A program made the position numbers and the translations under genes. Below, in pieces: positions 49,489-64,000 of a stretch of DNA of 64,000 nt. The stretch is from Chitinophagales bacterium. GTDB lineage: Bacteria > Bacteroidota > Bacteroidia > Chitinophagales > JADIYW01. The stretch covers positions 119,801 through 183,800 of the forward strand of contig JAGNZZ010000001.1 in the NCBI GenBank assembly GCA_017984135.1. The letters run 5' to 3'. The notes beneath the pieces were generated by a model. It was given only the letters and a program-made list of their open reading frames with translations, searched no databases and was not told the DNA's origin. Within the stretch, counting starts at the first letter, position 1, and the number at the start of each line of letters is the position of its first letter.

Positions 49489-50370
49489 TTAATATTTAAT
49501 GCCGGCACGTTTCCAACGACGATGGCTCCAAAGCCAGTATTCCGGTTTTTGTTGAATATCATTTTCCAACAAACGTACGTATTTTTCTACAATTTCATCT
49601 TCTGTATTTTTCGCTGCATGTTTGGTGATGGTGTCGAATTTTATTTCATAAAAACCACGATTTATTTTTTGGATGGAAGCATATAAAACAATGGCATCGG
49701 TTTTTTGTGCTAATGCGCCAAAACCTTTGTAAAATGGTGTGTTTTGACTCAAGAATTTTGTCCAATATGCTTTGTCTGTTTCCACTGGTGTTTGGTCTGC
49801 AACAAATGCCACTAAACAAGGTTGTTTTTTTAATTCAACATAAAGAGATTTAAGTTGATGATTGGCAATTAATTGACCACCTAATCGAGTTCTGTTTTTT
49901 AATAAAAATTTTTCAAACGTTTTATTACTGGGTGAAGCATAAAGCGCAATTGATGGTAATTTTGTTTCTAATGCAGCAAGGAGCGAAGCCCATTCCCAAT
50001 TACCATAATGGCCTAATACAATGAATATAGATTGTCCACTTTGTTCATATTTTTTAAGCAAAGCATAACTTTCATGTTGAATAAGCATACGTTGTGCCAG
50101 TTGTTTTCTAGACATGGTTATACTTTTTATGGTTTCCATCAAAAAATCAGCTAGATGCCTATAATAATTATTTCGAATGAACCATAATTCTTCACTTCGT
50201 TTATCGGGAAATGCATGGATTAAATTGAGGTCAATAATTGATTTTCGATATGGAATTATTCTATTAAAAATAAAATATAATAAATCACTCAAGAAAAGTA
50301 AAAATGAAAAAGGTAAATAGGAAAGTAGCTGAGCGCAGAAAAGTCCTATTTTTGTTAAAAGCCATTGCAT
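49489..50370 (-). CDS. Lysophospholipid/lipid A late acyltransferase family protein (LpxL/HtrB-like)
   Basis: N-terminal TM and an HxxxxE-type block (GHYGNWEW), ~290 aa. Confidence 0.7.
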   Translation of the reverse strand: MQWLLTKIGLFCAQLLSYLPFSFLLFLSDLLYFIFNRIIPYRKSIIDLNLIHAFPDKRSEELWFIRNNYYRHLADFLMETIKSITMSRKQLAQRMLIQHESYALLKKYEQSGQSIFIVLGHYGNWEWASLLAALETKLPSIALYASPSNKTFEKFLLKNRTRLGGQLIANHQLKSLYVELKKQPCLVAFVADQTPVETDKAYWTKFLSQNTPFYKGFGALAQKTDAIVLYASIQKINRGFYEIKFDTITKHAAKNTEDEIVEKYVRLLENDIQQKPEYWLWSHRRWKRAGIKY

Positions 50371-50394
50371 GGTGCTAAATTAGGTATATTTTAA

Positions 50395-50414
50395 GATTTC
50401 AGAATTATGATTTT
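50395..50414. repeat. Copy of the short dispersed repeat GATTTCAGAnTTATGATTTT
   Basis: gatttcagaattatgatttt matches gatttcagatttatgatttt (60881-60900) at 18 of 20 positions by manual alignment. Lies 25-44 nt upstream of the minus-strand start at 50370. Confidence 0.5.
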
Positions 50415-50494
50415 ACAATATTTATGCTATTATTTTATTTATTTTTAAAACGTATAGAAATCCTGATTTTTAAATAATCAACTATCTTTACGGC

Positions 50495-51121
50495 ATGAAT
50501 AGAATGTTGATTGAGTCACAATACATTGGAACTTGTAGCTATTGGAAATTATTATTGAACGCTCCGGAAATATGTTTTGATAAGCATGAACATTATGTAA
50601 AACGAAGTTATAGAAATCGGGCACATATATTAAGTGCCAATGATGTATTGAGATTAAGTATTCCATTAGAAAGTGGAAAGAATCAACACTCAGCGATGAA
50701 AGATGTTCGTATTTCGTATAAAGAAGATTGGCAAAGTTTACATTGGCAAAGCTTAATTTCCTGTTACAGTCGTTCTCCTTTTTTTGAGTTTTATGAAGAT
50801 AGAATTAAGCCATTTTACATCAAAAAATATGATTATTTATTAGAATTTAATCTTGATTATTTCAATGTGATTTCATCCATCTTAAAACGAAATATCACAG
50901 TACATGAATTAGATCGTTACTATAAATCGGAAGAGTATCATGGAAATGATTTTAGGAATTTTATATTACCCAGAAATGCACGTATCGAATATTTTCCGGA
51001 ATATACACAAGTGTTTAATGATAGAATGGAATTTAAACCAGAATTATGTGTGTTGGATTTAATTTTTAATACTGGAAATCAAAGCGCCACTTATCTTGAT
51101 AAGATTGTACTTAAATTTTAA
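50495..51121 (+). CDS. WbqC-family protein
   Basis: IESQYIGTCSYW...KHEHYVKRSYRNRAHILSANDVLRLSIPL matches my recollection of the WbqC-like family. Confidence 0.7.
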   Translation: MNRMLIESQYIGTCSYWKLLLNAPEICFDKHEHYVKRSYRNRAHILSANDVLRLSIPLESGKNQHSAMKDVRISYKEDWQSLHWQSLISCYSRSPFFEFYEDRIKPFYIKKYDYLLEFNLDYFNVISSILKRNITVHELDRYYKSEEYHGNDFRNFILPRNARIEYFPEYTQVFNDRMEFKPELCVLDLIFNTGNQSATYLDKIVLKF

Positions 51122-51941
51122 CTTCTAATTCCACGTTCCAAAGTTCGGAATTTTCATCTTTGTCAAATTCTTTAGTAAGCTTGACATCTAGTTTTAAATT
51201 TACTAAATTAATGTCTGCAACTTCTTTAGTGCTGATGCTATATGTTTTTAAATCATTTTGTATGCTTTCTATTTTTTGCAATTTAGCATTTGACAAATTA
51301 TAGTTTCTAAGTTGAATGACTACATAATTATACATGCCAATAGCTTTACTTCTATCTGAAGTTTTTATGAAGCCACAATTCCAACTATATTTGCCGTTTT
51401 GTTGATTTTTTATAAATGTAGATTCATACGCACCATTAACTATATAGTTACAAAAAAATTTATTGTTTGTATTGGGAATTTTTATGGAATCCAAAGCATA
51501 CTTTGCATTATATTTTAACTGTGAAATAGTATGATTGATGCCATCTGTTAATGAATAGGATTTGTAATCTGGAACTGACCACCAAGTTGGATTCATGTCT
51601 AAGGTGACTCGAATTCTATTAATTTCGTAATATTTTTCAATGGCATTATAGCGTAATACTTTTAAGCTCATGGGTGTGCCTACTGTACCTTGTACTAATT
51701 TTAAAACTTCACTATAACTCATTTTATGAATAGGCACTTTGTCTATTTCTAAAATCAAATCGCCAGGTCGAATGGAATGAGCATGCAAGTAATGGTTTAT
51801 CTCTAATGATTTGATTTTAAAACGTTGCGTAGTAGAATCAAAAATGGCTTGCCCACCAATTCCTCCGATTTTTGCAGATGGAGTATATGCTGTTGTTAAA
51901 ACAAACAGTGTTCCAAGAATAAAAAAATTGATAAATCTCAT
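51111..51941 (-). CDS. Secreted PDZ-domain protein, otherwise uncharacterised
   Basis: Signal peptide and a PDZ-like segment (IRPGDLILEIDKVPIHKMSYSEVLKLVQGTVGTPMSLKV). Start taken as ATG 51941. Confidence 0.55.
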   Translation of the reverse strand: MRFINFFILGTLFVLTTAYTPSAKIGGIGGQAIFDSTTQRFKIKSLEINHYLHAHSIRPGDLILEIDKVPIHKMSYSEVLKLVQGTVGTPMSLKVLRYNAIEKYYEINRIRVTLDMNPTWWSVPDYKSYSLTDGINHTISQLKYNAKYALDSIKIPNTNNKFFCNYIVNGAYESTFIKNQQNGKYSWNCGFIKTSDRSKAIGMYNYVVIQLRNYNLSNAKLQKIESIQNDLKTYSISTKEVADINLVNLKLDVKLTKEFDKDENSELWNVELEVKI

Positions 51942-51950
51942 GTTGCGATA

Positions 51951-51958
51951 CAAAATTA
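51951..51958 (-). promoter_or_regulatory. Bacteroidota -7 box (TAATTTTG) for the PDZ gene
   Basis: Perfect TAnnTTTG on the minus strand, 9 nt upstream of ATG 51941. Confidence 0.4.
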
Positions 51959-52001
51959 ACGCGACTAAATGTTAAAGTTATTGATTTTTATCAACTTTTG
52001 T

Positions 52002-53522
52002 TTAAAGCTTCTTAAATAATCCGCCAAATTCCATCATTTTCATCAAATCAGATACTTTTATTTTTCCGGACATAAATGCTTCTTGAGGATTCAATTTTCC
52101 TGTTTCAACAGCCACGTAAGTGGCATCATCGGTTTCTACGGTGCAGTCAACTGCAATTTGTCCACTATTCCCATTATTAATGATTTCTAAAATACCATCA
52201 TTTATAGATACAAAATACGTTGCTGAATCAAATTTAAATTCCATATTTAAATTTTTTCCTTTTGCTTTCTCTGTTTTAAATCGGGAAGGCAAAGTTTGAA
52301 AAACAGCCTCTACAGAATCTAATGAAGTATGTTCTTCTTTATTGATTGAAGTAGCTCTATCGTAGTTGGTATCATCAATAATCATTTTAGCTAAAATTTC
52401 TCTCATAATTTCTGAGGTTCCACCACCAATTGTTCCGATTCGAGAATCTCTGAATGCTCGTGCAATTTTAAAATCTTCCATATAACCATAACCTCCAAAA
52501 ACTTGTAGAATTTGATAGGCACATTTATCTGCTAATTCGGATGCTAACAGTTTAGAAATAGAACTTTCTTTTACAGCATATTTTCCTTCGTTATGCATTC
52601 TGCAAGTTTGTAATACATAGAATTTTATTGCTTCCGTTTCAGCGGCTAATTGTGCTACTTTGTGTCGCAGTACTTGAAATTTATTAATTGGACGACCAAA
52701 TGCATGTCTTTGACTCATATATTCCAATCCATATTGTATCATGCCTTCGCAAGCGGAATATCCCATGATTGAACCTGCTAATCGTTCTAATTGCAAGCCG
52801 CCCATTAAATAATAAAATCCTTTTCCTTCTTCGCCTAATAAATTTTTTGTTGGCACTTTTACATTATCAAAATGCAATTCTGCCGTGTCAGATGCATGCC
52901 AACCTAATTTTTTTAATTTGGTTTTAGATATGCCTTCACTATTTAAATCTACCACCAACAAACTTACGCCTGCTGCGCCAGCACTTGTGTTGGTTTTACA
53001 AACCAAGATTACAAAATGCCCGTAAACGCCATTAGTGATAAATGTTTTAGAGCCATTAACAACGTAGTAATCACCTTCTTTTATTGCGCGAGTTTGTATG
53101 TTAGCCACATCGCTGCCTGCACCTGGTTCTGTGATGCCAATACTGCCAATTTTTTCGCCGGCAATGGCAGCTTTGAAAAATGTTTCTTTTAAGTATTCAC
53201 TTCCATGATGTAAGATGTATGGACTGCTCATGCATACTTGTACGGCTGCCGTGATGGCAAAACCGCCAGAAAAGACTTTAGACACTTCTTCTAACATGAC
53301 AACAGTATAGAAAAAGTCGAGATTGCTTCCGCCATATTGCTCTGGAAAGCTGAGTCCGAAGTAACCCATTTCGCCAAATTTTTTCCAAAATTCACGAGGA
53401 ATTTTTCCATCTAATTCCCATTGGTCGATGTGAGGAACGGCTTCTGCTTTTAAAAAATCTTGAATGGATTTTCTGAACATTTCATGTTCTTCTGTAAAAT
53501 AGTAGGATAGTGCTGTTGACAT
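52002..53522 (-). CDS. Acyl-CoA dehydrogenase fused to a C-terminal SCP2 sterol-carrier-like domain (paralog 1)
   Basis: ACAD core to ~aa 385 (GITEPGAGSD..., GGYGYMEDF...IGGGTSEIM). The last ~110 aa (LPSRFKTEKAKG...LNPQEAFMSGKIKVSDLMKMMEFGGLF) are SCP2-like. Confidence 0.85.
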   Translation of the reverse strand: MSTALSYYFTEEHEMFRKSIQDFLKAEAVPHIDQWELDGKIPREFWKKFGEMGYFGLSFPEQYGGSNLDFFYTVVMLEEVSKVFSGGFAITAAVQVCMSSPYILHHGSEYLKETFFKAAIAGEKIGSIGITEPGAGSDVANIQTRAIKEGDYYVVNGSKTFITNGVYGHFVILVCKTNTSAGAAGVSLLVVDLNSEGISKTKLKKLGWHASDTAELHFDNVKVPTKNLLGEEGKGFYYLMGGLQLERLAGSIMGYSACEGMIQYGLEYMSQRHAFGRPINKFQVLRHKVAQLAAETEAIKFYVLQTCRMHNEGKYAVKESSISKLLASELADKCAYQILQVFGGYGYMEDFKIARAFRDSRIGTIGGGTSEIMREILAKMIIDDTNYDRATSINKEEHTSLDSVEAVFQTLPSRFKTEKAKGKNLNMEFKFDSATYFVSINDGILEIINNGNSGQIAVDCTVETDDATYVAVETGKLNPQEAFMSGKIKVSDLMKMMEFGGLFKKL

Positions 53523-53540
53523 GATAATTAAATAATTTAG

Positions 53541-53555
53541 TAATTAAATAATGTA
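53541..53555. repeat. Left arm of a perfect 15-bp inverted repeat flanking four-helix-bundle gene 1
   Basis: taattaaataatgta is the exact reverse complement of 53942-53956 (tacattatttaatta). A partial tandem copy lies at 53524-53537. Confidence 0.7.
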
Positions 53556-53563
53556 ATAATTAA

Positions 53564-53938
53564 TTAGTTTATTTTAATATTTAACTTTGAAGTTGATATT
53601 ATTTTAGTGAGTATTTTTCTAATTTCTAATAGTTTATCAATTAAATTTTGAGTATCAGGATAGGTATCAACTGCATTGCATATTTCTAACCAATATTCAG
53701 TTTCTTCCAATTCCTTTAATGCAATTTTTATTTTATGAATAAAATCATTTTTACTTTCAGCATTTTGTGCTTCTCTTACATTTGCACCAATTGATGTTCC
53801 TGATTTTAATAATTGATTTGAAATAATAAATTTTCTATTTGATTCTAATAATTCACAATACATGACTTTTTGAATTGAAAAATCAAAAGTCAATTTTAAT
53901 ATTGGATTGCTATTTTTTTCCATAATAGATTTTTTCAT
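53564..53938 (-). CDS. Four-helix-bundle protein (23S rRNA intervening-sequence protein family)
   Basis: SIGANVREAQNAESKNDFIHKIKIALKELEETEYWLEI, the family's hallmark. Confidence 0.85.
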   Translation of the reverse strand: MKKSIMEKNSNPILKLTFDFSIQKVMYCELLESNRKFIISNQLLKSGTSIGANVREAQNAESKNDFIHKIKIALKELEETEYWLEICNAVDTYPDTQNLIDKLLEIRKILTKIISTSKLNIKIN

Positions 53939-53941
53939 TCC

Positions 53942-53956
53942 TACATTATTTAATTA
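53942..53956. repeat. Right arm of the perfect 15-bp inverted repeat; overlaps the stop codon of ACAD-SCP2 paralog 2
   Basis: tacattatttaatta. Its last 3 nt (53954-53956, tta) are the TAA stop of the 53954..55480 gene. Confidence 0.7.
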
Positions 53957-55480
53957 TTTTATTGTTTCATTATTAAATTTTCGGAACAAAGTACCTAACT
54001 GCATCATTTTTCCTAAATCACTTACTTGAACTTTGCCACTCATAAATGCTTCTTGCGGATTAAGATTTCCTGTTTCAATGGCAATGTACGTTGCTTGGTT
54101 AGTAGTTACTATCAAGTCCACAGTTGACGGTCGACGGTCGACAGTGGACAAAGCAACTTGCTTGTTTTTTATTTGAACCCAATGATTTTTTTCATCTTCA
54201 AATTCAAACAACACATTCAACACTACTCCATCTGCTTTTTCTGTTTTTAATCTCGAAGGTAAACTATTGATGATATCATCAATGCTTACATCTTTAGATT
54301 GTGGTCGGTCGACTGTGGGCTGATAGCTTTTATCATCAATAACCATTTTCGATATAATCTCCAACATAATTTCTGATGTTCCACCGCCGATAGTGCCTAA
54401 GCGTGAATCTCGGAAAAAACGTGCCGCTTTGTATTCTTCCATATAACCATAACCACCAAACATTTGCAAACATTGATAGCCTAATTTATCAGATAATTCT
54501 GTGGCTAAATATTTTGACATAGAAGCTTCTTTAACGCAATATTTTTTCTCGTTATGCATTTGGCAAATTAAATAGGTATAAGTTTTTATACTTTCTAATT
54601 CTGCACTGAGTTGTGCCATTCGATGTCGCAAAACTTGAAATTTATTGATGCTTTTTCCAAATGCTTTGCGTTCACTCATATATTGCAAGGTGTATTGTAT
54701 CATTAATTCAGATGCAGCAATTGCTCCTAAGGCTAAGGTCAATCTGTCTAATTCAAAACGCTGCATGATGTAGTAAAATCCTTTGTTTGCTTCACCTAAT
54801 AAATTGGATATTGGCACTTCCACCTTATCGAATGCAATTTCTGCCGTATCACTGGCTTTCCAACCTAATTTTTTCAAATTATTTCTCGAAACACCTTTTG
54901 CATTTCCATCTACCAAAATCATAGATATACCACTTGCGCCAGAGTTGGCAGTTTTGCAAGCTACAATCATATAATCGGCTAAATAGCCATTGGTAATAAA
55001 ACATTTGCTTCCGTTGATGATGTATTTATCACCTTGTTGGATTGCTGTAGTTTTTATTCCGGCAACATCGCTTCCTGCGTGTGGCTCAGTAATGGCTAAA
55101 CATCCAACTATTTCTCCGGCAATGGCTTTATGTAAATATTTTTCTTTTAATTCGTCAGATGCTTCGTGTTTTAAATGCGACATAGACAAATATGGATGTG
55201 CGGAAATGCTTGCTGCAAAACCACCGCTCCAACATTTGCCTACTTCTTCAATAAAAATAACATCGTACCAAAAATCTAAATTAGAACCGCCGTATTTTTC
55301 TTCTTGCGTAATCCCAAAAAATCCCATTTCACCAAAACGCTTAAAAATTTCTCTGGGCAAAAATCCATCTTCTTCCCATTGGTCAATATTGGGTATTACT
55401 TCTTTATCCAAAAAATCGCGAAACGTTTTTCTAAATAATTGATGTTCCTCTTTTAAATAATATTGTTCTAAAATGCTCAT
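53954..55480 (-). CDS. Acyl-CoA dehydrogenase fused to a C-terminal SCP2 sterol-carrier-like domain (paralog 2)
   Basis: Same architecture as 52002..53522 (GGYGYMEEY...IGGGTSEIM; LPSRLKTEKADG...LNPQEAFMSGKVQVSDLGKMMQLGTLF). Confidence 0.85.
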   Translation of the reverse strand: MSILEQYYLKEEHQLFRKTFRDFLDKEVIPNIDQWEEDGFLPREIFKRFGEMGFFGITQEEKYGGSNLDFWYDVIFIEEVGKCWSGGFAASISAHPYLSMSHLKHEASDELKEKYLHKAIAGEIVGCLAITEPHAGSDVAGIKTTAIQQGDKYIINGSKCFITNGYLADYMIVACKTANSGASGISMILVDGNAKGVSRNNLKKLGWKASDTAEIAFDKVEVPISNLLGEANKGFYYIMQRFELDRLTLALGAIAASELMIQYTLQYMSERKAFGKSINKFQVLRHRMAQLSAELESIKTYTYLICQMHNEKKYCVKEASMSKYLATELSDKLGYQCLQMFGGYGYMEEYKAARFFRDSRLGTIGGGTSEIMLEIISKMVIDDKSYQPTVDRPQSKDVSIDDIINSLPSRLKTEKADGVVLNVLFEFEDEKNHWVQIKNKQVALSTVDRRPSTVDLIVTTNQATYIAIETGNLNPQEAFMSGKVQVSDLGKMMQLGTLFRKFNNETIK

Positions 55481-55498
55481 ATTTTCTCGTGATTTATT

Positions 55499-55590
55499 TA
55501 CCGCAAAGAGCGCAAAGGCTACCGCAAAGTTCGAAGAGGTTTATTTTTATAACCGCAAAGTATTTTAAGTTTTTCGCAAAGTTTTAAAGG
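55499..55590. repeat. CGCAAAG-motif repeat block (five copies), left flank of the GxxExxY gene
   Basis: cgcaaag at 55502, 55511, 55523, 55554 and 55575. The sub-block aaccgcaaag-N10-tttttcgcaaag (55551-55582) is mirrored at 56052-56083. Confidence 0.7.
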
Positions 55591-55591
55591 T

Positions 55592-55969
55592 TTATAATCC
55601 GTTTACTATTCTTTTTATTCCATGTTTTAAAAGGGTTACATTGAAATTTATTAATAAGCCAAGTTTGTAATTTCCAAGTTTTAAGTAAGTAAGCGTTTGT
55701 GCTAAATGAATGTCATTTAACGCTTCCACACTTTTTATTTCAATTACTAATTTTTCTTCCACCAATAAATCAATTCTATAACCGCAATCAAGTTTAACTT
55801 CTTCAAATAGTAATGGTATTGCTTTTTCTTTGTCAACTTTTAATCCTTCCTTTTTCAACTTATAATATAAACATTCTTGGTATGCACTTTCTAAAAGCCC
55901 AGGTCCTAATGCATTATGAACATCAATTGCTATACCTATAACAAAATGTGATAATTCATTTTCTTTCAT
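55592..55969 (-). CDS. GxxExxY protein (PD-(D/E)XK nuclease-fold family)
   Basis: GLLESAY motif and a D...E.K block (RIDLLVEEKLVIEIK), 125 aa. Confidence 0.85.
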   Translation of the reverse strand: MKENELSHFVIGIAIDVHNALGPGLLESAYQECLYYKLKKEGLKVDKEKAIPLLFEEVKLDCGYRIDLLVEEKLVIEIKSVEALNDIHLAQTLTYLKLGNYKLGLLINFNVTLLKHGIKRIVNGL

Positions 55970-56040
55970 TTTCTTCTATTATTACTTTGCTATAATTCCA
56001 TATTTGCTTTTTGCTATATAGTTGATAAATCATTTCAACT

Positions 56041-56083
56041 TACTTTGTGTCCTTTGCGAAAAATCTTTGAGCTCTTTGCGGTT
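56041..56083. repeat. Inverted CGCAAAG-motif arm, right flank of the GxxExxY gene
   Basis: Reverse complement reads aaccgcaaagagctcaaagatttttcgcaaaggacacaaagta, an imperfect inverted copy of 55551-55590. Both aaccgcaaag and tttttcgcaaag are exact. Confidence 0.65.
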
Positions 56084-56088
56084 AATGA

Positions 56089-56952
56089 TTAATTAATTGT
56101 TTTGATATTCAGCATTTCTCTTGTCTCAGAAATACTTGCAATTTCTCTGTCTAACATACGTGCTAATGTTGCGCCGGCTTCTACACATTCGCCGTTTGAT
56201 TTTGCCATTTCGCCATTGGGTAAGTAGAAATTATCTTCTAATCCAACTCGAAAATTTCCACCCATCGTACAAGCAATAGCAGCCAATTGCCATTGCTTTC
56301 TACTGATAGCAATCACTTGCCAAAATTCATTTTCCGGTACTTGCTTTATTTGATGCATTAAATTTTCTACTGTTGCAGGAATACCACCAAGCACGCCCAT
56401 TACTAAGCTGTAACATGCATTATCAGGAATTAATCCCATTTCTCGAAGTGGCACAACATTATGAATATGTCCGGTGTCGAAACATTCCATTTCCGGACAA
56501 ATATTATTTTCATTCATTGTTTTTACAACTTTAATCATCGTGTCAAAGGAGTTTTCAAAAACGGCATTCCAATAAAATTGTTTTTGTTTTTTGGAAAAGA
56601 TAGCATAGTTCATGCTGCCCATATTAAACGCTGCCATATCGGGTTTTGTAATCGGCAAATGCTTGATTCTTTCTTCTACGGAAAGACCGATTGCGCCTGT
56701 AGAAAAATTGATAATCACATCTGAAGAATGTTTGCGTACCTCCGCTTTAATTTCTTCAAATACTTCTGTTCGCCAACTTGGAATACCATTGTCTTCGCGC
56801 GCGTGAATGTGTACAATACTTGCGCCGGCATCTACTGCGCGTTTGGCTTCTTCACCTAATTCTCTTGGTGTGTATGGTATGGCAGGACAATGTGAACGGT
56901 TGGTGGCTGCTCCTGTGAGCGCTGCACTTAGTATTAGTTTTTTGTTTGACAT
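56089..56952 (-). CDS. Beta-keto acid cleavage enzyme family protein (BKACE; 3-keto-5-aminohexanoate cleavage enzyme-like, DUF849)
   Basis: LTGAATNRSHCPAIPYTPRELGEEAKRAVDAGASIVHIHAR, typical BKACE N-terminus, ~287 aa TIM-barrel size. Confidence 0.8.
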   Translation of the reverse strand: MSNKKLILSAALTGAATNRSHCPAIPYTPRELGEEAKRAVDAGASIVHIHAREDNGIPSWRTEVFEEIKAEVRKHSSDVIINFSTGAIGLSVEERIKHLPITKPDMAAFNMGSMNYAIFSKKQKQFYWNAVFENSFDTMIKVVKTMNENNICPEMECFDTGHIHNVVPLREMGLIPDNACYSLVMGVLGGIPATVENLMHQIKQVPENEFWQVIAISRKQWQLAAIACTMGGNFRVGLEDNFYLPNGEMAKSNGECVEAGATLARMLDREIASISETREMLNIKTIN

Positions 56953-56979
56953 TTATTTGATTTTTTTTGTTTATTTATT

Positions 56980-57140
56980 AACCGCAAAGTTTGCTAAGTA
57001 ATATATTCGCAAAGATTGCAAAGTTTTTATTTCTATTTTTCCATTTTTATATTAACCACAAAATATGCTAAGTTATTTCAAAGTATTCAAGATTTTCTAC
57101 AAGAACTTTGCGTAATTCTGAAACTTCGAGATTTGCGGTT
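56980..57140. repeat. Gene-less CGCAAAG inverted-repeat element (MITE-like or empty cassette)
   Basis: aaccgcaaag...ttcgcaaag...ttgcaaag (56980-57025) faces the inverted ctttgcg...tttgcggtt (57098-57140). A degenerate third copy lies at 57054-57090. No ORF lies between them. Confidence 0.6.
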
Positions 57141-57146
57141 AGTATT

Positions 57147-57971
57147 TTAATTTCCAATCCAATTTGGTTTTCGTTTTTCTTTGAATGCAGTTAAGCCTTC
57201 AGCTGCATCTTTACTTTGTAAACATTGCATCAACATAGCATGCAAATATTTGTGTTTTTCATCGGCATTTTTTGTTTTCATTTCTTGAAATGCTTTCAAG
57301 CCCAATCGTATGGCAGTAGGTGATTGTTCTTTGATTGCTGCAATTAATTCTTGTACTCGATTTTCTAAATTATCTGCAGTTACTACTTCAGAAACCAATC
57401 CGATTTCTTTTGCTTCACTTGCTGTCAATGTTTTAGCTCGAATGCATAAGTCTAACAGTTGGCGTGCCGACATTAAAGGCTCTAATGTTGCCATTACTTG
57501 AAATGGAAAAATGCCGCGTTTTACTTCAGGCAATCCAAATTTGGCTTCTTCAACGGCGATGACGTGTGTGCAACCACCAATCATTAAAAATCCACCGGCA
57601 TAAACATCGGCATGTACTTGTGCAATGCAAGGTTTATGTAAGCCGTTGAATTCATCGCCGAGTTTGACCATATCTTTTGGCATAGGTATGGTAGATTGTT
57701 TTTCGGCAGTGTTTTCACCAGCAAAGGCTTTTAAATCTGCACCGGCACAAAAGGTTGGTCCGTTGGCTTTGAGAACCACGCACCATATAGCATTGTTGTA
57801 ATGTGCATAAGCTAATGCGAATGCTAATTCATTTGCTAAAGGTGCGTGAAAAGCATTGCGTTTTTCCGGTCGATTGAGTGTGATGGTTAACACGTTTTCC
57901 TTTTCTTCGACAAGTAGGTAAGTAAAACTTTGTTCGTTGAAATTATGGATGTCTTGTTGTGAGTAGAGCAT
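57147..57971 (-). CDS. Enoyl-CoA hydratase/isomerase (crotonase) family; by context probably methylglutaconyl-CoA hydratase
   Basis: Crotonase fold motifs (FCAGADLK, GGGFLMIGGC-like, LPEVKRGIFP). Located between the MCC subunit genes and BKACE. Confidence 0.8.
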   Translation of the reverse strand: MLYSQQDIHNFNEQSFTYLLVEEKENVLTITLNRPEKRNAFHAPLANELAFALAYAHYNNAIWCVVLKANGPTFCAGADLKAFAGENTAEKQSTIPMPKDMVKLGDEFNGLHKPCIAQVHADVYAGGFLMIGGCTHVIAVEEAKFGLPEVKRGIFPFQVMATLEPLMSARQLLDLCIRAKTLTASEAKEIGLVSEVVTADNLENRVQELIAAIKEQSPTAIRLGLKAFQEMKTKNADEKHKYLHAMLMQCLQSKDAAEGLTAFKEKRKPNWIGN

Positions 57972-57976
57972 ATTTA

Positions 57977-58006
57977 TTTATGATTTATGAATTCAGATTT
58001 GAGATT
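57977..58006. repeat. 30-nt AT-rich element tttatgatttatgaattcagatttgagatt
   Basis: 28 of 30 positions match the reverse complement of 61253-61282 by manual alignment. Contains the palindrome TGAATTCA. Lies 6-35 nt upstream of the hydratase start. Confidence 0.6.
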
Positions 58007-58030
58007 AATTTATTCTAACTTTACTTTTCA

Positions 58031-58285
58031 TTTTTTTATGAGATTCCCTTTTACAAGGGAATGACATTTATATCTTAATGTAACCACGTCATTCTCACGA
58101 AAGTGGGAATCTTATTTTATTCCATTTTTATTTTCATTTTATATTTTTTTGAGATTCCCTTTTACAAGGGAATGACATTTATATCTTAATGTAACCACGT
58201 CATTCTCACGAAAGTGGGAATCTTATTTTATTCCATTTTTTCTTTTCATTTTTTTATGAGATTCCCTTTTACAAGGGAATGACAT
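58031..58285. repeat. 2.3 tandem copies of a 107-111 bp structured repeat, downstream flank of the GIY-YIG gene in gene orientation
   Basis: Anchor 'gattccc' at 58042, 58153 and 58260. Each unit has hairpin 1 (attccctt-ttac-aagggaat) and hairpin 2 (attc[t/c]cac-gaaa-gtgggaat). The third copy is cut after hairpin 1 by the gene's stop codon. Confidence 0.85.
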
Positions 58286-58636
58286 TTAATATCCAAAATA
58301 TTTTTTAGATTCATTATAATCTATTATATCCAATTCTGAATACCAATCAATCGCTAAATCTACTCTTTCTTTATTTATAGTATCAATTAATTCATCTTTC
58401 CATTTTCTATTCCATTTCTTTAATTGTTTTTCTCTTTCTATTGCGTTTGCCATATTATTAAACTCCTCGAAATAAATCAACTTTTTTATTTTGTATTTCT
58501 TTGTGAATACTGAACCATCGCCTTGTTTGTGCTGTAAAATTCTATACCATAAATAAGATGTGACACCAATATAAATTACATTACCAAAATTATTGGAGAT
58601 AATGTAAATACATGGATGTTTATTGTCTATTCTCAT
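58286..58636 (-). CDS. GIY-YIG nuclease-domain protein (small URI-domain type, COG2827/UPF0213-like)
   Basis: IYIISNNFGNVIYIGVTSYLWYRILQHKQG...FTKKY...LIYFEEF...AIEREKQLKKWNRKWK. Confidence 0.9.
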   Translation of the reverse strand: MRIDNKHPCIYIISNNFGNVIYIGVTSYLWYRILQHKQGDGSVFTKKYKIKKLIYFEEFNNMANAIEREKQLKKWNRKWKDELIDTINKERVDLAIDWYSELDIIDYNESKKYFGY

Positions 58637-58644
58637 GTTTAATT

Positions 58645-58845
58645 GTTTTTATAAGATTCCCTTTTACAAGGGAATGACATTTGTGTATTAATGTAACCAT
58701 GTCATTCCCACGAAAGTGGGAATCTTACTTTATTCCATTTTTTCTTTTCATTTTTTTATGAGATTCCCTTTTACAAGGGAATGACATTTGTATCTTAATG
58801 TAACCACGTCATTCCCACGAAAGTGGAAATCTTACATTATTTCAA
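58645..58845. repeat. Two further tandem copies of the same 107-bp structured repeat, upstream flank of the GIY-YIG gene
   Basis: Anchor 'gattccc' at 58655 and 58762, in the same orientation as the left block. The last copy runs up to the mccA stop codon (58846). Confidence 0.85.
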
Positions 58846-60861
58846 TCATTCTTTCATTTTTATCAATAACGTTCCGTTTTCTACAAATTGTTTTTCATTA
58901 ACATATATTTCTTCTACTTCGCCGTCGCTGTGGGCTTCAATGGTGCTTTCCATTTTCATAGAAATCATTTTTAATAAAGCATCGCCACTTTTTATTTTGT
59001 CGCCGGCTTTTACTAATACTGCCGTTATTTCGCCTGGCATGGGTGCAATGTATGCACCTTTTACTGTTTCTTCAATTGGACTTGGAAATTTATCTACACT
59101 AAACAAAACAATTTGCCCAAGTTGTGGTGAATGTATGAAATATTGATTACCGTTTTTAGAGAAGAAAAATTTTCGACGAATATTATTTATTTCAAAAGTG
59201 TGCCAATTGTTTCGGGATTTCTCTCTCGCCTTAAGCGAGATCGAATGAAGGTGCTCGTTATAGGTATGGTGTTTTGAAGCGAAATGTTTATCTGCAAATG
59301 AAATATGTAAATATCCGTTTTCGTTTTTGTATTCTACCAAAAATTCAAAGCCGTTAAAGCTGTATTTTTCTTGTTGCGCTTGATAGAAATTATTGCGCCA
59401 ACCTGCAGGAACGCCTTTTGCTAAGGATCTTTCATTTTCTCTTTGTAAAAAACGATAATGTTGCAAGGCACAAGTCAAAATATCCAAGGTTTCTTGCGGA
59501 TAATTTTCACCGGTATATTGGAATTTGTTATCCAAGAAATGCGTATCAAAATTTCCATTTTGGAAATCTTCGTTTTGTAATATAGATACTAAGAAATTTT
59601 TGTTTGTTGTAAAACCAGTTAAAACAGTTTCTTGCAATGCTAAAGTCAATTTAGCGATGGTTTCGTTTCTGTTTTTTCCTTTAGCAATTATTTTTGCAAT
59701 CATTGGGTCGTAGAAAGTTGAAATTTCTGAACCGCTTTCAATTCCGGTGTCATAACGCAAACCATCAATAGTTGCAGGTTGCCAATTCAAAATTTTTCCA
59801 CTTACTGGCATAAAATTGTTGGCTGCATCTTCGGCATATAAACGCACTTCAATAGCGTGTCCGTTTTGGGTAATTTCATTTTGTGTAAAAGGAATTGCAC
59901 TTCCTTGTGCTACTTCTATTTGCAATCGAACTAAATCTAAATGGGTAACTTCTTCTGTAACTGGATGTTCGACTTGCAAACGCGTGTTGACTTCCAAAAA
60001 ATAATAAGATTGGTCGTGAGTAACAATAAACTCTACTGTTCCAGCATTATCGTATTGAATAGCTTTACATGCAGCAACAGCCGCATCACCCATTTTTTTT
60101 CGTGTTTCTTCTGTGATAAAAGGAGATGGGCTTTCTTCTATTATCTTTTGATAACGCCGTTGAATACTACATTCACGTTCAAAAATATGCAATGCATTTC
60201 CATGTTTATCTCCAAAAATTTGAAACTCTATATGTCGAGCAGAATCGAAATATTTTTCTATTAAAAGTGTATCATCGCCGAAACCATTTAATGCTTCTGA
60301 TTTTGCTTCGGCAATGGCTTTGTCTAACTCTTTTTCTTCACACACAATGCGCATACCTTTACCGCCACCGCCAGCACTTGCTTTCAATAAAACAGGAAAT
60401 CCAATTTCAATTGACTTTGTTTTAATGGTTTCAATACTTTGGTCATCGCCTTGATAGCCAGGAATGGTTGGAACATGGTGTGCTTGCATAATTTTTTTTG
60501 CACCAATTTTAGAGCCCATCACTTCAATAGCTTTTGGATGAGGTCCAACCCAAATCATGTTTTCAGCTATCACTCGTTGAGCAAATTCAACACGCTCGCT
60601 CAAAAAACCATAACCTGGATGAATAGCATTTGCACCGGTTTTTTTTGCTGCATCCATAATTTTATCGATTATTAAATACGATTCATTCGGTTGCTTTCCT
60701 CCGATACGAACAGCTTCATCAGCGAGTTTAACAAACAATGCATTTTCATCCGCATCAGAAAAAACAGCAACAGTGGCAATGCCCATTTCTCTGCACGTTT
60801 TAAAAATCCTGCAAGCAATTTCCCCACGATTGGCAACTAATAATTTTTTTATTTTAGACAT
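58846..60861 (-). CDS. mccA: Biotin-dependent acyl-CoA carboxylase alpha subunit (biotin carboxylase plus BCCP), methylcrotonyl-CoA carboxylase type by context
   Basis: KKLLVANRGEIACRI start, ATP-grasp motifs, and a C-terminal biotinyl domain (SMKME). Confidence 0.85.
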   Translation of the reverse strand: MSKIKKLLVANRGEIACRIFKTCREMGIATVAVFSDADENALFVKLADEAVRIGGKQPNESYLIIDKIMDAAKKTGANAIHPGYGFLSERVEFAQRVIAENMIWVGPHPKAIEVMGSKIGAKKIMQAHHVPTIPGYQGDDQSIETIKTKSIEIGFPVLLKASAGGGGKGMRIVCEEKELDKAIAEAKSEALNGFGDDTLLIEKYFDSARHIEFQIFGDKHGNALHIFERECSIQRRYQKIIEESPSPFITEETRKKMGDAAVAACKAIQYDNAGTVEFIVTHDQSYYFLEVNTRLQVEHPVTEEVTHLDLVRLQIEVAQGSAIPFTQNEITQNGHAIEVRLYAEDAANNFMPVSGKILNWQPATIDGLRYDTGIESGSEISTFYDPMIAKIIAKGKNRNETIAKLTLALQETVLTGFTTNKNFLVSILQNEDFQNGNFDTHFLDNKFQYTGENYPQETLDILTCALQHYRFLQRENERSLAKGVPAGWRNNFYQAQQEKYSFNGFEFLVEYKNENGYLHISFADKHFASKHHTYNEHLHSISLKAREKSRNNWHTFEINNIRRKFFFSKNGNQYFIHSPQLGQIVLFSVDKFPSPIEETVKGAYIAPMPGEITAVLVKAGDKIKSGDALLKMISMKMESTIEAHSDGEVEEIYVNEKQFVENGTLLIKMKE

Positions 60862-61246
60862 ATTTTGATTTCAGATTTATGATTTCAGATTTATGATTTT
60901 TTTTAGCTTTTAGTGTTTTTAGAATAGCTGAAAATATAGCAGTTAATTCATTTGATTCTTTGATTAATTCTTCTAATCCATTTAATTTTGAATTTGTTTC
61001 TTCAAATAGTTCAACCCAATAAATACATTCATCTGCTTCTTCTTGAACAATATTTATTTTATTGATAAAATCTGGGTTTGATTTACCTCTTAATGCAGAA
61101 CGATAATTTGCACCAACGGATGTTGATGCTCTAACGATTTGTTTAATTATGATTACATTAGCATAAGTCGGTTTTATGTTTTCAGTAAATTTTATAGTAT
61201 TTACAGCAAATTTTTTTGTTCTATTTCGTAGTTCAATTGAGTTCAT
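60854..61246 (-). CDS. Four-helix-bundle protein (23S rRNA intervening-sequence protein family), copy 2
   Basis: SVGANYRSALRGKSNPDFINKINIVQEEADECIYWVEL. The 3' end overlaps the mccA start by 8 nt (TATGTCTAA). Confidence 0.85.
   Translation of the reverse strand: MNSIELRNRTKKFAVNTIKFTENIKPTYANVIIIKQIVRASTSVGANYRSALRGKSNPDFINKINIVQEEADECIYWVELFEETNSKLNGLEELIKESNELTAIFSAILKTLKAKKNHKSEIINLKSKYV
60866..60903. repeat. Perfect 14-nt tandem duplication (gatttcagatttat x2, plus a partial third) with a T-run
   Basis: Units at 60867-60880 and 60881-60894. They encode the last ~13 aa of four-helix-bundle copy 2. Related to 50395-50414, 10485-10510 and 57977-58006. Confidence 0.75.
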
Positions 61247-61252
61247 ATTATA

Positions 61253-61282
61253 AATCTTAAATCTGAATTCTTAAATCATAAA
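61253..61282. repeat. Inverted copy of the 30-nt AT-rich element
   Basis: Reverse complement tttatgatttaagaattcagatttaagatt versus 57977-58006. Lies between the mccB stop (61288) and the four-helix-bundle start (61246). Confidence 0.6.
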
Positions 61283-61287
61283 TTCAA

Positions 61288-62892
61288 TTACATTCTAAAC
61301 ACACCCCAAGCATTTGTTCCTTTTACTTCATTTATATAGGTTAATGCTAATATTAACCCAAATACATGTCGTGTATCTCTTGGGTCGATGATGCCATCAT
61401 CCCAAAGTTGACCTGTAGCAAAGAATGCATTACTTTGTTTTTCTATTTCCATTTTCATAAATTCTTTCATTTGTGTTGCTTGTGTTTCGTCGTATTGTTG
61501 ACCAGATTTAATAGCGGCTTCTTTGCTGACCATTTGCATGACACCAGCTAATTGTTCTGCACCCATAACCGCAATCATAGAGTTTGGATAGGAAAATAAA
61601 AAACGTGGATTATAAGCTCGACCGCACATCGCATAATTTCCTGCGCCATACGATGCGCCCATCATTAAAGTAAACATAGGTACTTCGGAATTAGAAACCG
61701 CATTAATCATCTTGGCACCATCTTTAATAATGCCACTTTGTTCGTAATCTTTTCCCACCATAAATCCTGTAATGTTTTGTAAAAATAGGATAGGTGTGTG
61801 GTTCATATTGCACAACTGAATAAAGTGTGCACCTTTGTTAGACGAATCATTAAATAAAACGCCATTATTTCCGATGATTGCAATAGGATAACCGTGAATT
61901 TTTGCATAACCGCAAACTAACGTAGTGCCATATTCTTTTTTAAACTCGTGAAACTCTGAACCATCTACTATGCGAGCAATTACTTCTCGGCAATCAAAAG
62001 GAACTTTAGTGTCCACAGAAACAATTCCGAGTAACTCGTCGATAGGATAATGAGGTTCTTTATAATTTTGAGATTTGAGATTTTGGATATGAGATTTTAA
62101 ATTTAGATTAGCCATTAATTCTCTTGCAATTCTGATTCCATCTAATTCATCTTGCGCTAAATAATCGGAAACGCCTGAAATTTTTGAATGCATTTCTGCT
62201 CCACCTAAAGTTTCATCATCTACAATTTCATTCGTAGCCATTTTTACTAATGGTGGTCCGGCTAAGAAAACTTTAGCATTGTTTTTAATGAAAATAGTAT
62301 AATCGCTCATACCTGGAATATATGCACCGCCGGCAGTTGAATTTCCAAAAACGATAGAGATCGTTGGCACACCTTGTTTAGAACGACGTGTAATTTCTTT
62401 GAAATTATTTCCACCTAAATTAAACACTTGTGCTTGGTCGGGCAAGTTGGCACCTGCACTTTCCACTAAACTGATTCCTGGTAAATTATTTTCTCGTCCA
62501 ATTTCTGAAATACGTAATGCTTTTTTCAAAGAAGCAATATCAATAGCACCACCTTTATTAGTGCCAACATTTGAAGTGATTAAACACATTTTTCCAGATA
62601 CAAAACCTATACCAGCAACCATAGTGCCACCTGTTCCAAAGCCACCTTTTACACCTAATCCTGCTAAAGGACATAATTCTAAAAATGGAGAATCTTGGTC
62701 GAGTAATAATTCTATTCGTTCACGGGCTAAGAACTTGCCTTGTGATTTCGCTTTAGTAGTATGTTTTTCATCTCCTTGAAATATGGATTGTTTGAGATGT
62801 TTTTCTAACTCAGCAATTTTATCAAGCATCTTAGAATAATTCTCTTTATATGATGCAGCGGTTGTATTTATTTTTGTTTTTATAGTGGACAT
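61288..62892 (-). CDS. mccB: Acyl-CoA carboxylase carboxyltransferase (beta) subunit, methylcrotonyl-CoA carboxylase type
   Basis: N-terminal region (GKFLARERIELLLDQDSPFLELCPLAG) resembles the MCC beta subunit more than PCC beta. Tandem crotonase-like CT domains, 534 aa. Confidence 0.85.
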   Translation of the reverse strand: MSTIKTKINTTAASYKENYSKMLDKIAELEKHLKQSIFQGDEKHTTKAKSQGKFLARERIELLLDQDSPFLELCPLAGLGVKGGFGTGGTMVAGIGFVSGKMCLITSNVGTNKGGAIDIASLKKALRISEIGRENNLPGISLVESAGANLPDQAQVFNLGGNNFKEITRRSKQGVPTISIVFGNSTAGGAYIPGMSDYTIFIKNNAKVFLAGPPLVKMATNEIVDDETLGGAEMHSKISGVSDYLAQDELDGIRIARELMANLNLKSHIQNLKSQNYKEPHYPIDELLGIVSVDTKVPFDCREVIARIVDGSEFHEFKKEYGTTLVCGYAKIHGYPIAIIGNNGVLFNDSSNKGAHFIQLCNMNHTPILFLQNITGFMVGKDYEQSGIIKDGAKMINAVSNSEVPMFTLMMGASYGAGNYAMCGRAYNPRFLFSYPNSMIAVMGAEQLAGVMQMVSKEAAIKSGQQYDETQATQMKEFMKMEIEKQSNAFFATGQLWDDGIIDPRDTRHVFGLILALTYINEVKGTNAWGVFRM

Positions 62893-62966
62893 AATTTTCT
62901 TTTTTTAAAACAACAGGATGTTTAAAAAACATTAACAAGTATAAGCATTTTCTATTAATTTGACTA

Positions 62967-62979
62967 AACGTTTGGTAAA
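62967..62979. promoter_or_regulatory. Candidate operator, copy 1 of AACGTTTGGTAAA
   Basis: Exact 13-mer repeated at 63053-63065. Contains the palindrome AAACGTTT. Lies where a -33 element for the minus-strand operon would be expected, relative to an imperfect -7 box TATACTTG at 62936-62943. Confidence 0.35.
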
Positions 62980-63052
62980 AAATTATTTGTAAAATTTGTG
63001 TTAATTCATATCAAGCACTTGATATTCAACATTAAAAGCGGTAAAACAAACG

Positions 63053-63065
63053 AACGTTTGGTAAA
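63053..63065. promoter_or_regulatory. Candidate operator, copy 2 of AACGTTTGGTAAA
   Basis: Exact 13-mer, embedded in CAAACG-AA-CGTTTG (63047-63060). Ends 2 nt before the -33 TTTG of the SCP2-gene promoter. Confidence 0.35.
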
Positions 63066-63067
63066 TA

Positions 63068-63099
63068 TTTGGAATAATTAAAATCTTTATTTACATTTG
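63068..63099 (+). promoter_or_regulatory. Bacteroidota promoter for the SCP2 gene (-33 TTTG and -7 TACATTTG)
   Basis: TTTG at 63068-63071, 20-nt spacer, TAcaTTTG at 63092-63099, ATG 33 nt further on. Confidence 0.5.
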
Positions 63100-63132
63100 T
63101 TTATTCATATTAATTAATAAAAATCAACTCAA

Positions 63133-63459
63133 ATGACAGCAAAAGAAATTGTATTAGGATTACCTAGCAGACTAAAATCAGAAGAATCTGCAGGACAAAG
63201 TGGAACCTTCCATTTTAAATTAGAAGGCGATAATGGAGGTGAATTTACAGTAACTGTAGCAGATGGTGTTTGTACAGTAGCAGAAGGTTTAAACGGAGAA
63301 GCTGATTGTCTAATCTCAGCATTAGCCAGCGATTTTGAAGATGCAGAAGAAGGACGTGTAAATAAACAAATGGCAGTAATGATGGGTAAAATTAAAATTA
63401 GTAATTTAGGAGCAATGCTTAAGTTTCTAGGAATGTTTAATGAAATAGAAGCAGCATAA
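63133..63459 (+). CDS. Stand-alone SCP2 sterol-carrier-like domain protein
   Basis: LPSRLKSEESAG...FHFKLEGDNGGEFTVTV...ADCLISA...MAVMMGKIKISNLGAMLKF. Same domain as the C-termini of the two ACAD fusions. Confidence 0.8.
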   Translation: MTAKEIVLGLPSRLKSEESAGQSGTFHFKLEGDNGGEFTVTVADGVCTVAEGLNGEADCLISALASDFEDAEEGRVNKQMAVMMGKIKISNLGAMLKFLGMFNEIEAA

Positions 63460-63481
63460 AGTACATTCTATCTTTATTATT

Positions 63482-63511
63482 AAAAACAGCTCTAAATGAG
63501 CTGTTTTTTTT
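63482..63511 (+). terminator. Rho-independent terminator
   Basis: Stem acagctc / gagctgt with a taaat loop, followed by an 8-T run. Confidence 0.75.
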
Positions 63512-63600
63512 ACGAATTCTAATTAAAACCGACCGAATGCTAATTTATCAAGCATAGCACATAGTTGATATCTAAGTTTACACTAATTAAAATAAAGACT

Positions 63601-64000
63601 ATGAAAAATAAACTAAAATTGGGAATAACTTGTTTAATAACATTTATTTCCTTGTTATTGATGATTACTTCTTGTAAAAAAGAAGCACCAATCAAAAATA
63701 AAAATTATGCTGATATTAAAAGTGTAAATTGGGAAGATCGAATTGGTGAAGAATTTGAAGTGGAAGGATTTATTATTTCAGAAGGAAATACTAAACCAAT
63801 TATTACTTCGGAGCCTGAAAATTACTTATTTGACGGCCTTTATCCAGAATCTGAATATTTACATCTAGAACTACAAAGTCCTAATGATAACTTAAATAGT
63901 TTTCATGGAAAGAAAGTTCGGATAAAAGGAATTTTAGAAAAAAATACAGATGCTTCTATTTTGGGTACTGCTGCAAAATTTGGCAATTCTTCTTTAGCTA
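63601..64000 (+). CDS. Lipoprotein of unknown function, N-terminal part (runs off the window end)
   Basis: Not in the ORF track because it has no stop. My translation: MKNKLKLGITCLITFISLLLMITSCKKEAPIKN..., with a lipobox (ITSC). The frame stays open to position 64000. Confidence 0.55.
   Translation, partial: MKNKLKLGITCLITFISLLLMITSCKKEAPIKNKNYADIKSVNWEDRIGEEFEVEGFIISEGNTKPIITSEPENYLFDGLYPESEYLHLELQSPNDNLNSFHGKKVRIKGILEKNTDASILGTAAKFGNSSLA

Follow-up and report, generated by a model that had tools for sequence, protein, structure and literature searches.

In bacterial 23S rRNA genes, intervening sequences (IVSs) that carry an open reading frame (ORF) of the S23p/PF05635 family have been described in Coxiella, Leptospira, Xanthomonas, and Brucella, where they are deemed selfish and their mode of spread is unexplained (PMC4990558). 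The Coxiella IVS is a 428-nt element with a 28-bp terminal stem that is cut by RNase III, the S23p ORF residing in the loop and tandem GACAGAT heptamers preceding its start codon (PMC4990558). Here, we analyze a gene of the same family in a 64,000-nt stretch from a Chitinophagales bacterium (contig JAGNZZ010000001.1, positions 119,801 to 183,800, hereafter the window), where it lies between two ACAD-SCP2 genes of a catabolic operon and, together with the exact inverted repeat that brackets it, forms a unit of 416 bp from arm to arm (53541-53956).

Other small elements share parts of this arrangement. The short tandemly repeated repetitive (STRR) elements of heterocystous cyanobacteria are ORF-less arrays of a 7-nt unit that are able to fold as hairpins and lie in intercistronic spacers, such as that between hupS and hupL (PMC2670836). 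Correia/NEMIS and ERIC elements are small insertions near genes, bounded by inverted repeats and co-transcribed with their neighbors, whose hairpin can be bound and cut by RNase III (PMC2649163); they have no ORF, one conserved terminal-repeat sequence per family, and a duplicated TA target. In REPIN-RAYT systems, a gene for a Y1/HUH transposase with known DNA cleavage is flanked by inverted repeat units found elsewhere on their own as well (PMC3116915), and Avd, a protein of diversity-generating retroelements (DGRs), belongs to a homologous four-helix-bundle family and resembles PF05635 (PMC10053308).

On the minus strand of the window, the gene order is a GxxExxY gene, ACAD-SCP2 paralogue 2 (ACAD2, 508 aa), the 124-aa ORF under study, and ACAD-SCP2 paralogue 1 (ACAD1) (Table 1). 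The 15-nt repeat, TAATTAAATAATGTA and its exact reverse complement, encloses the 124-aa ORF asymmetrically, the left arm ending 8 nt past its stop codon and the right arm beginning 3 nt past its annotated ATG, precisely as given in the preliminary description. This perfect 15-mer is the best-kept stretch within a pair of 50-nt flanks of 76% complementarity, and the flanks are two inverted arrays of an 8-nt unit, reading in the sense of the gene AATAATGA, AACAATAA, AATAATTA, AATAATGT, and AGGAATGA on the 5′ side and TTAATTAT, TACATTAT, TTAATTAC, TAAATTAT, and again TTAATTAT on the 3′ side. A partial tandem copy of the left arm had been listed beside the repeat; the copy is real, with one mismatch at 53525-53539, but its 16-nt offset equals two units, and it reflects the periodicity of the flank rather than a separate feature. 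The flanks are 85% A+T, in a window of about 31% G+C.

The encoded protein is clearly a member of the PF05635/TIGR02436 family (23S rRNA intervening-sequence protein; four helix bundle), as indicated by its matches to Pfam PF05635 (75.3 bits, E 5e-21, cut-off 33.8 bits) and to NCBIfam TIGR02436 “four helix bundle protein” (91 bits, E 5e-26, cut-off 24). From homology to solved members, it is predicted to adopt the four-helix-bundle fold and to assemble into a pentameric ring, PDB 2rld_A being its only solved relative by sequence (E 2e-22). Because its orthologues all begin at the equivalent of M6 (MEKxxNPILKL), the annotated ATG is doubtful, and the true start is probably M6, five codons further inside (53921-53923). 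The distance from the ACAD2 stop to the M6-type start is about 23 nt longer in the window than in the related genome L021.

For each of the 59 genes called in the window, the two 45-nt flanks were compared for their longest exact inverted match, which measured 15 nt for the 124-aa gene, 13 nt for one other gene, and 4-9 nt for the remainder. Dinucleotide shuffles of the gene's own AT-rich flanks gave P(≥15) = 0.00125, its mismatch-tolerant inverted-repeat score was reached in none of 1000 shuffles, and for the inverted flanks of all nine orthologous copies at most 3 of 1000 shuffles reached the observed score, confirming that the window repeat exceeds chance. Nor is the 15-mer an abundant word, as it occurs as a single pair in the 64-kb window, and of the 163 fetched loci the six that belong to the same genome lineage are the only ones to share it. 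Public assemblies of four different sources contain the identical 124-aa protein, with the same synteny, in 62 blocks, so the locus, which stems from an uncultured Chitinophagales lineage, is not an assembly artefact.

Such flanks extend well beyond this copy. When exact inverted flank matches of at least 10 nt were scored for 800 genes of the genome loci, they were found for 11 of 27 PF05635 genes, 5 of 12 GxxExxY genes, and 2 of 4 GIY-YIG genes, compared with 1.1% of 719 other genes, and none of 133 other small genes reached a 12-nt match (Mann-Whitney p ~1e-7). A metagenome scan with orthologue alignment yielded 80 further PF05635 loci, 77 of them usable, of which 39 had an inverted-repeat score of at least 12, with arms of 34-43 nt, typically 34-38 nt. 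Taking related genomes and metagenomes together, about half of 104 PF05635 genes are inverted-flanked, against about 1% of other genes. The tandem build is equally general: lag-8 self-identity in the flanks of these 104 cassettes was 0.46/0.47 versus 0.33/0.30 in controls, forming a sharp peak that has no counterpart in the latter. The units themselves vary from cassette to cassette (TTTGAAAA, GATAATGT, GAGGATGT, GGAAAGNG, GGGAATTG, AATTCGT, and others), and each cassette's arms score higher with one another (14.3) than with the arms of other cassettes (9.4; permutation p<2e-4). Complementarity is perfect over 23-35 nt in cassettes with G/C-containing units, such as TTACGATTTGGGAATTGGGATTT in L019 and four copies of AATTCGT in Nostoc and Dolichospermum. 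Among cultured isolates whose gene bears the PGAP annotation “four helix bundle protein”, the two just named have perfect arms of AATTCGT heptamers measuring 33-35 nt, and the same inverted-array build was found in Euhalothece, Candidatus Chlorohelix (Chloroflexota), Treponema, Bernardetia, and Chondrinema, the groups represented being Cyanobacteria, Chloroflexota, Spirochaetota, and Cytophagales. The unit period is 8 in the window and 7 in the cyanobacterial and other isolates.

In cassettes with strong repeats, the upstream stop codon overlaps the 5′ arm in 18 of 34, no more than 11 nt separate the 3′ arm from the downstream ATG in 24 of 31, and the arm-to-arm unit spans 420-506 nt. At the Bacteroidota loci, all 84 relations to neighboring genes are co-oriented, compared with a 68% baseline, as are 130 of 138 at the metagenome loci. 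At least 11 Bacteroidota contigs from metagenomes (L100, L114, L117, L125, L138, L140, L143, L146, L147, L151, and L163) carry a PF05635 cassette with TTTGAAAA arms at the sufB-sufC junction. In L160 (2389-3040), the PF05635 gene is preceded by about 90 nt of TTTGAAGATTAACTGA units and followed by 180 nt or more of ATTTTCAAAT-type units, and these very long arrays imply that arrays can expand. Solo arrays are also found beside genes, upstream or downstream, without a cassette.

Compared with the 23S rRNA IVSs, the window element has the same ORF family, a similar size, terminal inverted repeats that enclose the ORF and are able to form a stem (15 of 15 positions perfect; 50 nt at 76%), and short tandem repeats near the start codon. 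Unlike them, it lies between protein genes of a catabolic operon rather than in helix 9, 25, or 45 of 23S rRNA: no rRNA match was found in 50000-64000, where its neighbors are the ACAD-SCP2 genes, and no conserved 23S motif in any of the 163 fetched loci. Its stem has just 15 perfect bp, and its protein is under purifying selection, in contrast to the decaying, probably untranslated ORF of the Coxiella IVS. With STRR sequences, it shares inverted arrays of short tandem units in an intercistronic spacer, and the ORF-less shells of L008, L018, and L156 resemble them, whereas its 8-nt unit, the 124-aa gene in its loop, and its Chitinophagales host set it apart. Like Correia/NEMIS and ERIC elements and miniature inverted-repeat transposable elements (MITEs), it is an insertion between genes bounded by terminal inverted repeats; it departs from them in carrying an ORF for a conserved protein, in its cassette-specific tandem-array arms, and in the scarcity of near-identical copies, the 15-mer being unique in 64 kb and the two PF05635 copies of the window just 31% identical. 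The resemblance to REPIN-RAYT systems (PMC3116915) extends to a protein gene between inverted units that also occur alone, but PF05635 is a small helical bundle without a known catalytic site. As for DGRs, no reverse transcriptase, template repeat, or variable repeat was found near the locus. The defence and phage libraries returned nothing for PF05635, a scan of Rfam matched no family and gave only miRNA-like noise on the palindrome at 58649-58730, and a full-text literature search found neither a link between PF05635 and STRR nor an account of operon-junction cassettes. The cassette class appears to be undescribed, and the window copy is an eroded, ordinary member of it, unremarkable alone.

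Scanning with ACAD2 gave 77 loci, and the ACAD2-ACAD1 junction was compared in at least 30 related Chitinophagales genomes. They share an operon for methylcrotonyl-CoA carboxylase (MCC) beta and alpha, enoyl-CoA hydratase, BKACE, ACAD2, ACAD1, and a PDZ protein, in which every junction is variably occupied. The ACAD2-ACAD1 junction is empty (25-31 nt) in L023, L026, L036, and L045, contains an ORF-less hairpin of one of three arm types in eight genomes, a GxxExxY cassette in six (L009, L010, L015, L025, L029, and L037), and the PF05635 cassette under study in the window and eight genomes, the L017 copy being internally deleted. The 416-bp stretch is thus a discrete, repeat-bounded insert, in agreement with the preliminary description, although the proposed tie between this insertion and a tandem duplication of the ACAD genes found no support: the paralogues are only 55% identical and occur as a pair in every one of these genomes, which dates the duplication long before the insert.

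L007, the closest relative (93% ACAD2 identity), has no PF05635 gene at this junction and carries two tandem CCGCAAAG hairpins there, while more distant genomes (75-81% identity) have the gene; therefore, the insertion is old and the junction has undergone turnover. The insert is common to at least nine species-level lineages with saturated synonymous sites, and the window copy is an old, vertically inherited, eroded insertion, its arms about 75% complementary with a 15-bp perfect core. Orthologues at the junction show a pN/pS of about 0.2 and a dN/dS of 0.04-0.20, at a pS of 0.58 with saturated synonymous sites, and the low dN/dS indicates that the PF05635 gene is kept by purifying selection. 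Column identity in the orthologue flanks, for which MAFFT alignments are ambiguous owing to low complexity, is 65-72% and thus above that of synonymous sites; this conservation may arise because the flanks share sequence with the ACAD2 C-terminus and two regions of translation start.

The stop codon of ACAD2, the TAA at 53954-53956, does lie within the right arm, as initially proposed, but its role is secondary. ACAD2 ends in ...NN-TAA, followed by the array, in L008, L016, L017, and L042, whereas in the window, L011, L021, L024, and L031 the native TAA has become GAA and the ORF runs four codons longer, to the TAA of the array, which took over as a reserve stop once the native codon was lost. 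The GxxExxY cassettes found at the same junction are bounded as TTAA-CCACAAAG...CTTTGTGG-TTAA, with near-perfect arms of about 40 nt that abut the ATG and the stop codon; the empty site of L023 has one TTAA, at the ACAD2 stop, which is compatible with a TTAA target, yet TTAA is itself palindromic.

Evidence of mobility comes from an ars operon. The cassette shared by L111 and L129, arms included, is 87.7% identical over 448 nt, compared with 77.6% and 74.8% for the host genes, and occupies different ars junctions, between arsM and acr3 in one case and upstream of arsM in the other; it has therefore moved as a repeat-bounded unit. In L129, a solo 5′ arm remains at the other ars junction. Turnover is also apparent between the MCC genes, where L012 has a different PF05635 cassette nested beside the old 3′ arm, L008 retains both arms around a degraded middle, and a CGCAAAG hairpin fills the site in L014. 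Arm pairs of a TTTGAA type that enclose no ORF were found as well.

Considering these observations, we read the 15-mers as the best-kept parts of the terminal arms of a hairpin-loop gene cassette of about 420 bp, whose arms would also loop the transcript for RNase III, and we assign this reading as a whole a probability of roughly 0.6. Its components differ in strength. The cassette identity and the insertion history, taken separately, are highly probable, while the RNase III step, which draws on the precedent of the 23S rRNA IVSs, is a tentative suggestion that could well be wrong. A small PF05635 ORF is bracketed on each side by about five 8-nt units, forming mutually reverse-complementary arrays, and cassettes of this kind sit between operon genes and, in Bacteroidota, nearly always in the orientation of the operon. 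The 5′ arm reaches or overlaps the upstream stop codon, and the 3′ arm stops just short of the downstream ATG, by a few bases. In the proposed mechanism, these arms would pair once transcribed into polycistronic RNA and loop out the ORF, as in the RNase III-cut IVSs of 23S rRNA, and the looping out would let the insert be tolerated without breaking the operon. When the mRNA strand is folded, the 15-bp closing stem is present in both the minimum free energy and the centroid structures.

Several results weigh against this model. The closing stem is AU-rich and energetically weak, and the fold of the whole region is no more stable than those of shuffled sequences (z=-0.82). Among 10 orthologous cassettes, own-arm complementarity (17.95) was not significantly higher than the cross-species value (17.17; p=0.14), and mismatches in imperfect arms showed no sense-strand G:U bias (47 G:U, 87 A:C, 162 other), a test that is made uninformative for RNA versus DNA pairing because sense-strand A dominates the mismatches of either arm. 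None of these three comparisons supports present-day selection for pairing in the window copy. We found no transposase or reverse transcriptase near the locus and no recombinase within 6 kb. We know of no catalytic activity of PF05635. Lastly, co-orientation is not universal, since in cyanobacteria two copies at a cas2-cas1 junction run opposite to their neighbors. A candidate case of compensatory evolution, a double change from G-C to A-T and from A-T to T-A noticed by eye between the window and L011, was discarded, having failed the own-versus-cross test above. By eye, the Bacteroidota promoter motif TAnnTTTG was seen in the arms of a few cassettes and was absent in the window. As a speculation, the pentameric protein might bind five 8-nt units; the clustering of arm lengths at 34-38 nt, or about 4.5 units, neither supports nor refutes it.

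The main rival to the hairpin-loop reading, which we consider rather unlikely, is that the arms work purely as DNA, being the terminal inverted repeats of a MITE-like element that is mobilized in trans by cut and paste; required for insertion alone, they would have decayed ever since and would have no role as an RNA stem. Such decay would fit the eroded arms of old orthologous copies, their missing compensatory signal, and the near-perfect 33-43-nt arms of younger-looking copies, but a single sequence-specific transposase is difficult to reconcile with arms that differ so greatly among cassettes (TTTGAAAA, GATAATGT, GAGGATGT, AATTCGT, GGAAAGNG, and others), and none is encoded in or near them. 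ORF-less shells share arm types with ORF-bearing cassettes, much as MITEs do with their parent elements. With respect to target sites, the GxxExxY cassettes, with TTAA at both ends and a matching empty site that has a single TTAA at the stop codon, would fit transposition of this type; no clear target-site duplication was found for the PF05635 cassettes. The absence of sense-strand G:U bias agrees with pairing at the DNA level, whereas the co-orientation of Bacteroidota copies is unexpected from DNA transposition alone, although selection could yield it.

It is considerably less probable that the arrays serve separate local roles, the A-rich one providing stops in all frames and a leader for the small gene and the T-rich one promoting downstream translation initiation, with complementarity as a by-product. 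Perfect complementarity over 23-35 nt with G/C-containing units, as with TTACGATTTGGGAATTGGGATTT in L019 or four AATTCGT copies, is no by-product of composition, and own arms pair better than the arms of other cassettes. Such roles would explain several other features: upstream stops inside the 5′ arm in 18 of 34 cassettes, ATGs a few nucleotides after the 3′ arm, the back-up stop gained in the window lineage, solo arrays up- or downstream of cassette-less genes, orthologue flanks more conserved than synonymous sites, and the predominance of A among sense-strand mismatches in both arms.

A chance match of two extremely AT-rich, low-complexity spacers is very improbable and already contradicted. 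In its favor, the 15-mer duplex reaches only -12.2 kcal/mol and that of the 50-nt flanks -16.6, about fourth to fifth of the 59 genes; flank duplexes of such low energy are not rare, and with a per-gene shuffle probability near 0.001 a genome could contain several cases of this kind. The contradiction lies in the top rank of the 124-aa gene in exact match length among the 59, the significant inverted flanks in 9 of 9 orthologues, the inverted flanks of the other three cassettes of the same operon, the metagenome loci, and an enrichment of about 40-fold of the gene family over other genes. Least probable of all is an invertible DNA switch, with the repeats acting as sites at which a recombinase inverts the 400-bp segment, for although Bacteroidota invertons typically have inverted repeats of this size around some hundreds of bp, and the two cyanobacterial copies are anti-oriented to their neighbors, a single orientation was seen in all assemblies and orthologues (23 contigs, 11 orthologues, and 14 sufB-sufC copies), no recombinase gene lies within 6 kb, and arm sequences are not conserved within the genome.

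All four small-gene cassettes of the window, two with PF05635 genes, one with a GxxExxY gene, and one with a GIY-YIG gene, are inverted-flanked. The preliminary description named inverted flanks of other four-helix-bundle paralogues as a check, and this came out in its favor, as the second PF05635 gene (60854-61246) has such flanks. That gene has also lost its stop codon: the ORF reads through its own 3′ arm, giving the C-terminus KKNHKSEIINLKSKYV, and overlaps the MCC-alpha start by 8 nt. Around the GxxExxY cassette, ACCGCAAAG occurs in five copies in 55500-56989, compared with 0.25 expected, and ORF-less hairpins of CGCAAAG units fill junctions in L007, L014, and L022. The GIY-YIG gene weakly matches a homing endonuclease in PHROG. 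A free-standing 108-aa ORF (63133-63459, plus strand), located immediately upstream of the operon and opposite to it in strand, resembles the C-terminal SCP2 domain of the ACAD-SCP2 proteins (42 bits to ACAD1).

Table 1. Coordinates of the cassette under study, its host genes, and the other cassettes of the operon in the window
Feature	Position	Strand	Basis or detail
5′ arm (gene sense) of the perfect 15-bp repeat; holds the ACAD2 TAA (53954-53956)	53942-53956	-	sequence
3′ arm of the perfect 15-bp repeat; follows the stop codon of the PF05635 gene by 8 nt	53541-53555	-	sequence
5′ array, five 8-nt units; begins inside the last ACAD2 codons	53935-53974	-	lag-8 self-identity 0.65
3′ array, five 8-nt units; fills the spacer to the ACAD1 ATG and includes the 53525-53539 copy	53523-53563	-	lag-8 self-identity 0.73
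PF05635/TIGR02436 gene, 124 aa as annotated; probable start M6 (53921-53923)	53564-53938	-	hidden Markov model (HMM) matches
ACAD-SCP2 paralogue 2 (ACAD2), upstream host gene; C-terminus 4 codons longer, into the array	53954-55480	-	ORF and HMM
ACAD-SCP2 paralogue 1 (ACAD1), downstream host gene; ATG directly after the 3′ array	52002-53522	-	ORF and HMM
GxxExxY cassette (PF13366, PD-(D/E)XK); ORF 55592-55969	55496-56086	-	arms 55496-55517 and 56065-56086, 22 nt, 91%, CGCAAAG units
GIY-YIG cassette; ORF 58286-58636	58152-58787	-	palindromic GTCATTCCC...GGGAATGAC units, direct and inverted
Second PF05635 cassette, between the MCC beta and alpha genes	60854-61290	-	arms 60861-60899 and 61252-61290, 39 nt, 79%

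In cyanobacterial plasmids, the PF05635 gene lies between cas2 and cas1, in anti-orientation, or beside cas1 (L169 589-945, L170 577-924, and L173 574-942). The domain “23S rRNA IVP” was counted as CRISPR-associated in a large clustering screen (PMC10910872), and this location, together with the repeat-like flanks, may explain that listing of PF05635.

Genes of the PF05635, GxxExxY, and small GIY-YIG types are annotated by the dozen in Bacteroidota and cyanobacteria and are usually ignored, and the IVSs of 23S rRNA and the cyanobacterial STRR sequences are unexplained features that were first noted more than 25 years ago; an STRR reportedly lies inside a structural RNA gene, to go by the title of a 1997 paper by Vioque. 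Our results suggest that IVSs, STRR sequences, and operon cassettes are faces of one phenomenon, in which small genes reside in the loops of inverted short-tandem-repeat hairpins between co-transcribed genes. A bolder version, which we think unlikely, is that PF05635 genes, and in parallel GxxExxY and GIY-YIG nucleases, are the protein-coding form of phylum-spanning mobile hairpin-loop cassettes, with STRR hairpins as their ORF-less form. One type of element would then colonize both the helices of structural RNAs (23S rRNA IVSs and RNase P RNA) and operon junctions, by means of arms that fold and are clipped from the transcript, and the Avd-like pentameric protein would recognize its own arrays and take part in the spread, possibly through an RNA intermediate. 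If the phenomenon is indeed a single one, it would provide a testable origin for rRNA intervening sequences and a handle on the function of Avd-like proteins outside retroelements, and may account for the appearance of PF05635 as “CRISPR-associated” in large screens. It would also supply a rule for annotation, by which operon junctions that vary among close relatives may be cassette sites and the C-termini of upstream proteins may be cassette-derived.

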